Below the pieces are notes generated by a model, which saw only the letters and a list, made by a program, of their open reading frames with translations, searched no databases and was not told where the DNA came from. DNA of 4,797 bases from IMG/VR virus record IMGVR_UViG_2124908012_000287; one strand, written 5' to 3'. The DNA comes from a virus. Taxonomy: Duplodnaviria > Heunggongvirae > Uroviricota > Caudoviricetes. Positions 2,337 to 3,796 of the stretch are shown here, piece by piece. Every line of letters starts with the position of its first letter. Position 1 is the stretch's first letter. The translations under genes were made by a program, and so were the position numbers.

Positions 2337-3257
2337 ATGAGTAAAGTCTTTATTTGCGCCGCTATTCCTGACGAACTGGCAACAAGGGAAGAAGGCGCTG
2401 TGGCTGTAGCCACAGCCATTGAAGCTGGCGACGAACGCCGTGCTCGAGCAAAATTTCACTGGCAATTCCTGGAACATTATCCGGCTGCTCAGGACTGCGC
2501 TTATAAATTTATTGTCTGCGAGGATAAACCTGGCATACCCCGCCCTGCCCTCGATTCATGGGATGCTGAATATATGCAGGAAAACCGCTGGGATGAGGAG
2601 TCTGCTTCTTTTGTCCCGGTTGAGACTGAATCCGATCCGATGAACGTCACTTTTGACAAGCTGGCCCCTGAAGTACAGAACGCTGTCATGGTTAAGTTCG
2701 ACACATGTGAAAACATCACCGTTGATATGGTTATTAGCGCACAGGAATTGTTGCAGGAAGACATGGCAACATTCGACGGACATATCGTTGAAGCGTTGAT
2801 GAAAATGCCAGAAGTTAACGCCATGTATCCGGAGCTTAAGTTGCACGCCATTGGGTGGGTTAAGCATAAATGTATTCCTGGTGCTAAATGGCCCGAAATT
2901 CAGGCAGAGATGCGCATCTGGAAAAAACGTCGCGAAGGTGAACGCAAGGAAACCGGAAAATACACGTCTGTTGTTGATCTCGCCCGCGCCAGAGCCAATC
3001 AACAGTACACTGAAAATTCAACAGGAAAAATCAGCCCGGTCATTGCTGCCATTCATCGCGAATACAAGCAGACATGGAAAACACTGGATGACGAACTGGC
3101 CTATGGGCGCTGCTTCGCAGACAGGCAGAACTTGATGGTATGCCTGCGATCAATGCCAAACGTGTTTACCGGATCATGCGCCAGAATGCGCTGTTGCTTG
3201 AGCGAAAACCTGCTGTACCGCCATCGAAACGGGCACATACAGGCAGAGTGGCCGTGA
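2337..3257 (+). pseudogene. ydfE: Function-unknown prophage protein; native coding sequence 2337 to about 3103, then 51 codons read out of frame through IS2 DNA to a stop at 3257 (306-codon chimeric ORF)
   Basis: ORF-track ORF 2301..3257 (the track starts at a TTG). The preferred start is ATG 2337, with a GAGG Shine-Dalgarno 9 nt upstream. From about 3104 the DNA is IS2 insD sequence in a different frame, so the tail ([18 protein letters not shown]...) is not native. The 306-aa length matches the K-12 YdfE annotation, which therefore includes the IS2-derived tail. Confidence 0.65.
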
Positions 3258-3796
3258 AAGAAAGCAATCAGCGATGGTGCTCTGACGGGTTCGAGTTCTG
3301 CTGTGATAACGGAGAGAGACTGCGTGTCACGTTCGCGCTGGACTGCTGTGATCGTGAGGCACTGCACTGGGCGGTCACTACCGGCGGCTTCAACAGTGAA
3401 ACAGTACAGGACGTCATGCTGGGAGCGGTGGAACGCCGCTTCGGCAACGATCTTCCGTCGTCTCCAGTGGAGTGGCTGACGGATAATGGTTCATGCTACC
3501 GGGCTAATGAAACACGCCAGTTCGCCCGGATGTTGGGACTTGAACCGAAGAACACGGCGGTGCGGAGTCCGGAGAGTAACGGAATAGCAGAGAGCTTCGT
3601 GAAAACGATAAAGCGTGACTACATCAGTATCATGCCCAAACCAGACGGGTTAACGGCAGCAAAGAACCTTGCAGAGGCGTTCGAGCATTATAACGAATGG
3701 CATCCGCATAGTGCGCTGGGTTATCGCTCGCCACGGGAATATCTGCGGCAGCGGGCTTGTAATGGGTTAAGTGATAACAGATGTCTGGAAATATAG
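3104..3796 (+). pseudogene. insD: IS2 transposase InsD, 5'-truncated (C-terminal ~230 of 301 aa retained, including most of the catalytic region)
   Basis: Recognised from the InsD protein sequence. There is no start codon with an RBS for the native N-terminus, and the upstream insC gene and the programmed frameshift region are absent. Confidence 0.85.

Follow-up and report, generated by a model that had tools for sequence, protein, structure and literature searches.

Gene content of the window

The window, by which we mean the whole 4,797-nucleotide stretch of DNA analyzed here, agrees over positions 1-3807 without a single mismatch with E. coli K-12 MG1655 1647742-1651548 and covers a stretch of the cryptic prophage Qin with the order dicA-ydfABC-dicF-dicB-ydfD-ydfE-IS2E. 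In window coordinates derived from the MG1655 annotation, dicA is located at 193-600, ydfA at 767-922, ydfB at 924-1052, ydfC at 1082-1300, dicF at 1641-1693, dicB at 1868-2056, and ydfD at 2053-2244. The ydfE open reading frame follows on the plus strand (2337-3257; ATG at 2337, TGA at 3255-3257) and has 306 codons plus the stop. It is composed of two parts: a native part of 255 codons (2337-3101, plus strand), which is the beginning of an 823-aa lambdoid-phage exonuclease gene and shows no mismatches to phage PhiR42_1, and a read-through tail derived from insertion sequence IS2 (3102-3257, plus strand), which comprises codons 256-306 (YGRCFADR...IQAEWP) and the TGA. The IS2 remnant, IS2E, occupies 3102-3807 on the plus strand, is made up of IS2 nt 626-1331, and corresponds to the MG1655 mobile_genetic_element at 1650843-1651548. 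It carries the insD7 pseudogene, an insD remnant open reading frame starting from an internal ATG (3140-3796, plus strand), which encodes the integrase core of the IS2 transposase and is recognized by the Pfam models rve (9.6e-19) and rve_3 (1e-18). The rest of the window (3808-4797, minus strand) is the 3' end of ydbA fragment 1, an autotransporter pseudogene.

The junction, the 306-codon open reading frame, and the boundaries of the remnant are the same as those of ydfE (b1577), IS2E, and insD7 (b1578) in MG1655. The window departs from MG1655 after the remnant, where the latter continues with intQ and the former with the reverse complement of ydbA fragment 1.

The ydfE-IS2 junction

IS2D of MG1655 (1331 bp) served as the IS2 reference and was compared with the window without gaps, in the register set by the IS2 right terminus. 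Window 3102-3807 has 0 mismatches to IS2 nt 626-1331, and similarity is lost abruptly to the left of 3102. An earlier reading of the DNA made from its letters alone (the sequence-only reading) had placed the abrupt start of IS2 homology inside insD at about 3104, with the left ~630 bp of the element missing; alignment to the full IS2 moves the start by 2 nt to 3102, which is 211 nt inside insD (IS2 nt 415-1320), and sets the missing part at 625 bp (nt 1-625). On the other side of the junction, the PhiR42_1 exonuclease gene (L003:6001-6767) and window 2337-3103 have 0 mismatches over 767 nt and diverge from 3104. As the exonuclease match runs to 3103 and the IS2 match begins at 3102, this three-way comparison places the deletion junction within a 2-nt TA overlap at 3102-3103, where the exonuclease gene coincides with IS2 nt 626-627. 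No microhomology longer than TA was found at the junction, and the patchy similarity surrounding it amounts to 8/18 identities, a value reached by 6% of random registers (p ~0.06). The 2-nt overlap points to illegitimate recombination and not to transposase action, although an overlap alone does not identify the mechanism.

The two ends of the remnant differ in nature. The 30-nt IS2 left inverted repeat (IRL), the absence of which had already been remarked on, has no counterpart anywhere in the window with up to 3 mismatches allowed, while the right terminal inverted repeat is intact and the remnant ends at the exact IS2 terminus, ...GGGGCAAATCCA at 3807. A search for a 5-bp target-site duplication at both ends of the remnant found none; the flanks are unrelated, being exonuclease nt 763-767 on the left and, on the right, int nt 137 onward in MG1655 or ydbA in the window. 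In the intact phage, the sites flanking the remnant are at least 2.2 kb apart. Since the left junction is not an IS2 end and the right end is a true terminus, the join is to be ascribed to a deletion or illegitimate recombination and not to insertion of IS2 at the junction, which is what the sequence-only reading had proposed.

Apart from IRL, the remnant is devoid of insC (orfA) and of the first 70 codons of insD (IS2 nt 415-625), so that of the full-length insD (orfB, 301 codons) only the rve core remains. With a single end and without a complete transposase, the remnant is unable to transpose. In codons 256-306 of ydfE (51 codons), IS2 DNA is read in frame +1 with respect to insD, and the earlier claim that the ydfE frame runs for 51 codons through IS2 in a frame other than that of insD is exact. 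Such a read-through is not remarkable, given that 33% of entry points in that IS2 frame stay open for at least 51 codons.

With a 140-nt probe spanning the ydfE-IS2 junction, an uninterrupted match was obtained in 355 of 5,426 complete E. coli genomes; in the others, the exonuclease and IS2 halves of the probe match separately, with the split exactly at probe position 70/71. The junction appears to be limited to K-12-type genomes.

The intact exonuclease and its domains

When 50,697 phage records were searched by tblastn with the 306-aa product, 17 phages matched residues 1-257 only, and the tail was matched solely by IS2 DNA. The best match is phage PhiR42_1, from ECOR13, in which the gene (L003:6001-8472) has 823 codons, is annotated as "exodeoxyribonuclease VIII," and is followed by xis and int. 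Intact homologues have 822-826 codons, and the gene order exo-xis-int is found in PhiR42_1, PPompW, and Evi. The exonucleases of PhiR42_1 (XSB42569.1, 823 aa), Evi, HannyBb, Tritos, and PPompW belong to phrog_2082; residues 1-255 of the PhiR42_1 protein are identical to those encoded in the window. As in the window, these lambdoid-phage exonuclease genes are located downstream of dicB/ydfD-like genes. The window lacks what corresponds to residues 256-823 of these proteins, that is, a RecE-like center and a DEDD (Rv2179c-like) domain, and xis is missing as well.

An alignment of 22 database homologues covers the point at which the native sequence ends. Every non-frameshifted one that extends past the junction reads ...TLDxELAY-ALWPGDxDAGNIDGSIHRW..., where the window switches to the IS2 tail. 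The view that the 306-aa ydfE is a fusion artefact is thereby borne out, the intact homologues being of 822-826 aa and all of the ~15 aligned ones continuing with ELAY-ALWPGD. The sequence-only reading had named homologues from IS-free prophages that end in the same 51 residues as the observation that would speak against it; among 172 homologues from a collection of 5.8 billion proteins, the tail is absent except in the copy or copies of the same junction. Candidates for sharing the tail were set aside on inspection. P0025 and similar proteins, which reach 94% query coverage, are frameshifted copies with a spurious C-terminal alignment, and P0120, which does have the tail, has the same junction in the same chromosomal context and comes from an oddly mutated assembly.

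In the intact protein, the N-terminal module (residues 1 to ~261) is family-specific, with precomputed Pfam hits to YdfE_N and YdfE_C. Residues 262-627 resemble the non-catalytic center of Rac RecE (RecE 278-592) with 39% identity, and residues 642-813 form a DEDD 3'-5' exonuclease domain (PF16473, Rv2179c-like, E = 2.4e-67). The fragment in the window aligns to positions 1-257 of 823 of phrog_2082 (E = 5.6e-195), and a separate PHROG family of 257 positions, phrog_5943, equals YdfE 1-256. Of these parts, the K-12 fragment has the first module alone and is without the nuclease domain. The breakpoint (aa 255/256) is 6 residues before the start of the RecE-like region (aa 262), and its near-coincidence with a module boundary is probably just that, a coincidence.

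The 306-aa product has no hit in the Pfam-A library, in which the YdfE_N and YdfE_C models are not reported, and none to NCBIfam PRK09709 (RecE/exodeoxyribonuclease VIII), and the IS2-derived tail has no match among PHROG families. The AF2 model of the 306-aa product has a mean pLDDT of 56 and is confident for residues 101-210 only, with pLDDT 29-37 in the tail. A Foldseek search of this model against the PDB returned nothing with E < 1 and gave no functional clue for the N-terminal module.

The intact Qin-type exonuclease has its central region in common with RecE (exonuclease VIII of the Rac prophage) and an equivalent position in the early left operon. RecE has no similarity to the N-terminal module kept in ydfE, and the C-terminal nuclease of the intact homologue differs from that of RecE in being DEDD-type by Pfam. 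On the intact homologue, PRK09709 covers residues 246-623 only, with a score of 281.6, where the cut-off is 1269. In phage records (PV340562, OV696610, and others), the name given to the intact 823-aa homologue is "exodeoxyribonuclease VIII." This appears to be a loose name, because the catalytic domain is DEDD-type and the PRK09709 score is far under the cut-off, and it looks as though it was transferred from the common central region.

The lost DNA and the history of the junction

In MG1655, the exact IS2 right terminus adjoins nt 137 of int (L003:8952). The phage DNA missing at the remnant thus amounts to 2184 bp, made up of 1705 nt from the 3' end of the exonuclease gene, of xis, and of nt 1-136 of int. 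Both breakpoints and the identity of the lost DNA are established by the comparison with exo-xis-int of PhiR42_1, from which the deleted segment and the native C-terminus could be recovered, as had been expected of intact relatives. The broader statement that the prophage downstream of ydfE is lost holds for these 2184 bp but not for what follows, since the rest of int (intQ) continues after the remnant in K-12. That intQ is replaced by ydbA in the window itself had been overlooked.

The MG1655 intQ pseudogene (L001:6513-7709, outside the window) begins within IS2, 37 nt from its right end, and is a second read-through open reading frame from the same IS2 copy, in which IS2 supplies the start and the integrase is without its first 45 codons.

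The presence of a true IS2 end at int nt 137 argues for insertion of IS2 at that point, and the internal left breakpoint argues for a later deletion. We propose that IS2 would have entered int of Qin behind nt 136, oriented so that its left end pointed toward the exonuclease gene, and that a single deletion of ~2.8 kb, arising by illegitimate recombination at a 2-nt microhomology, would then have joined exonuclease nt 767 to IS2 nt 626. Lost with this deletion would have been, on the phage side, two-thirds of the exonuclease gene at its 3' end, xis, and 136 nt from the start of int and, on the IS2 side, nt 1-625 with IRL, insC, and the start of insD. The broken frame would by chance have been open for 51 IS2 codons, producing the 306-codon open reading frame. 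In our judgment, ydfE in the window is very probably a dead N-terminal fragment of a prophage exonuclease that arose by IS2 insertion and subsequent deletion.

A probe for the IS2-intQ junction was matched over its full length in 356 of the 5,426 complete genomes, and this K-12-type set is practically the one that has the ydfE-IS2 junction (355). With both junction probes, none of the 5,426 complete genomes turned out to have the intermediate, in which an intact exonuclease gene would be accompanied by a complete IS2 in int. Since both junctions occur in essentially the same genomes, the two-step order is something we infer rather than observe, and the same applies to the recombination mechanism. 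IS elements are capable of causing adjacent deletions, and a single aberrant transposition of IS2, with an internal sequence near nt 626 acting as a substitute left end and with deletion of the adjacent DNA, would be a one-step route to the remnant. A CAGACA motif located 17-24 nt into the remnant, which bears a loose resemblance to one in the terminal repeats of IS2, fits such an event. However, 13-14 of the 42 positions in IS2 nt 626-667 agree with IRL or IRR, where the background is 10.1 +/- 2.8 with a maximum of 21, and transposase-mediated deletions normally keep a complete element end. Nor is nt 626 a recurrent end, because the other matches to the IS2 half of the junction probe are IS2 copies without the exonuclease half. 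We therefore consider one-step transposition barely credible and retain insertion followed by deletion.

Other deletions in this segment are indicated by database proteins from other E. coli in which precomputed Pfam annotation pairs the YdfE domains with a Phage_integrase or an excisionase domain (P0072, P0105-P0107, and P0100). Judged by their domain content, these are direct exo-int or exo-xis fusions with other breakpoints and without IS2; in P0072, the only one of them that was aligned, exonuclease residues 1-164 are identical. This suggests that the exo-xis-int segment of Qin-like prophages decays repeatedly by independent internal deletions.

Expression and function of the chimera

The dicBF operon is repressed by DicA and has ydfE as its last gene, and no transcript reaching through ydfE was seen on Northern blots (PMC10448788). 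These data bear on whether the 306-aa chimera could be a working gene, with the N-terminal module and the IS2-encoded tail expressed together and kept for a function. The location in the operon is compatible with this idea, as are the breakpoint almost at a module boundary, the existence of a PHROG family (phrog_5943) that equals the native part, and the intactness of the open reading frame in 355 genomes. These genomes are, however, apparently K-12-type (this is true of all that were inspected, and the two junctions go together in one set of genomes), and their number therefore says nothing on selection. The missing transcript speaks against a working gene, as do the tail, which matches no family and is modeled with very low confidence, and the scoring of a ydfE mutation in evolved lines as a pseudogene change (PMC6928379). 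The only proteomic report of "YdfE" is from a strain that is not K-12, a vesicle proteome of the pathogenic strain DSM 105380 searched against the K-12 proteome (PMC10954253). We rejected it as proof of translation of the chimera for that reason, and the protein detected is probably the full-length homologue. Taken together, a working chimera is most unlikely, and the reading of ydfE as a dead fragment is preferred.

The fragment is close to a clean module and, going by its domain layout, there is a small chance that it may keep some activity. More speculatively, YdfE_N plus YdfE_C with the short tail from IS2 might act alone once DicA repression is lifted, for example as a binding or regulatory module of the recombination system, and the window might separately record an uncatalogued ~182 kb inversion between IS2E and IS2D across the terminus region of a K-12 derivative; we regard this combination as very improbable.

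Prior annotation and significance

The reference annotation NC_000913.3 lists ydfE (b1577) as a pseudogene, has IS2E at exactly window 3102-3807, and marks insD7 as a pseudogene. PGAP describes ydfE as "exonuclease, incomplete, missing C-terminus," with its end at the junction. A breseq table published in 2019 contains the entry "ydfE pseudogene (384/765 nt)" (PMC6928379), and 765 nt equals 255 codons, which matches the native part of ydfE. The observation of a chimeric ydfE/IS2 reading frame is confirmed and the interpretation given to it is supported, but it was already known and re-derives curated annotation. It is an ordinary finding because the reference annotation already marks ydfE as a pseudogene.

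Protein databases and proteome search files still carry the 306-residue "YdfE," which is a chimera. Because residues 256-306 are IS2 sequence read out of frame, any domain, structure, or peptide assigned to these last 51 residues is meaningless, while "YdfE" hits outside K-12 probably report the full-length exonuclease. At this place, Qin has lost xis, the beginning of int, and both the central and the catalytic region of the exonuclease, which helps explain why the prophage is locked in place. The significance is mostly one of bookkeeping, and the only unexpected element is the ydbA flank.

The right flank: ydbA in place of intQ

Window 3808-4797 is the exact reverse complement (0 mismatches) of MG1655 1466920-1467909, which is the end of ydbA fragment 1 and a flank of IS2D. 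In MG1655, IS2E is on the plus strand (1650843-1651548) and IS2D on the minus strand (1467910-1469240), and the two are identical over the 706 bp they have in common. The window consists of the Qin flank, IS2 626-1331, and the reverse-complement ydbA flank, all with 100% identity to MG1655. With two oppositely oriented IS copies in the parental genome and a junction in which the IS joins one flank to the other flank in reverse complement, this is exactly how one junction of a ~182 kb inversion by homologous recombination between IS2E and IS2D would look. The arrangement was not found in any of the 5,426 complete (RefSeq) E. coli genomes, none of which has at least 80% of the window in one place, and nothing specific on an IS2D x IS2E inversion was found in the literature. 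Database look-ups with the YdfE and insD-remnant proteins led only to the usual K-12 context or to IS2 copies that are unrelated.

We lean slightly toward a real inversion of ~182 kb, with an assembly mis-join across the IS2 repeat as an explanation that is only somewhat less likely. The identity of IS2E and IS2D over all 706 bp, the flanks of 100% MG1655 sequence, and the occurrence of the arrangement in 0 of 5,426 complete genomes all speak for a mis-join, and rearrangements across IS copies are beyond short reads (PMC5009759). On the other hand, the geometry is exactly that expected from homologous recombination of two inverted copies, IS2E (+) and IS2D (-). IS copies also recombine frequently with one another in E. 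coli, even if such events are invisible to short reads (PMC5009759), and engineered inversions within the terminus region with an end at ydfE are viable and tolerated (PMC2585057). If real, the ydbA flank would represent an IS2-mediated inversion across the replication terminus region that is missed by short-read resequencing.

The window also contains a minus-strand open reading frame (3767-4573) that runs from the ydbA fragment through the IS2 right end and has its stop within IS2, at 3767. Here, in mirror image, IS2 again supplies the end of an open reading frame.

The same region in other genomes

The genome CP172819.1 (L022 3245-10408) has the same ydfE-IS2 junction in the same chromosomal context. 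Substitutions, mostly transitions, reach 5.9% in ydfE and 4.3% in IS2E, with 17 gaps over the aligned region, while the adjacent intQ differs by only 0.09%. This divergence could be due to local hypermutation or to a polishing artefact.

In several laboratory K-12 derivatives, a fresh complete IS2 is located inside the IS2E remnant or no more than ~12 nt from its start. Examples are Trp01 (CP174507, L004 6101-8132), BH212 (CP029239, L005 6104-8132), and NCM3722-type genomes, and it seems that new IS2 copies have targeted the IS2E remnant repeatedly.
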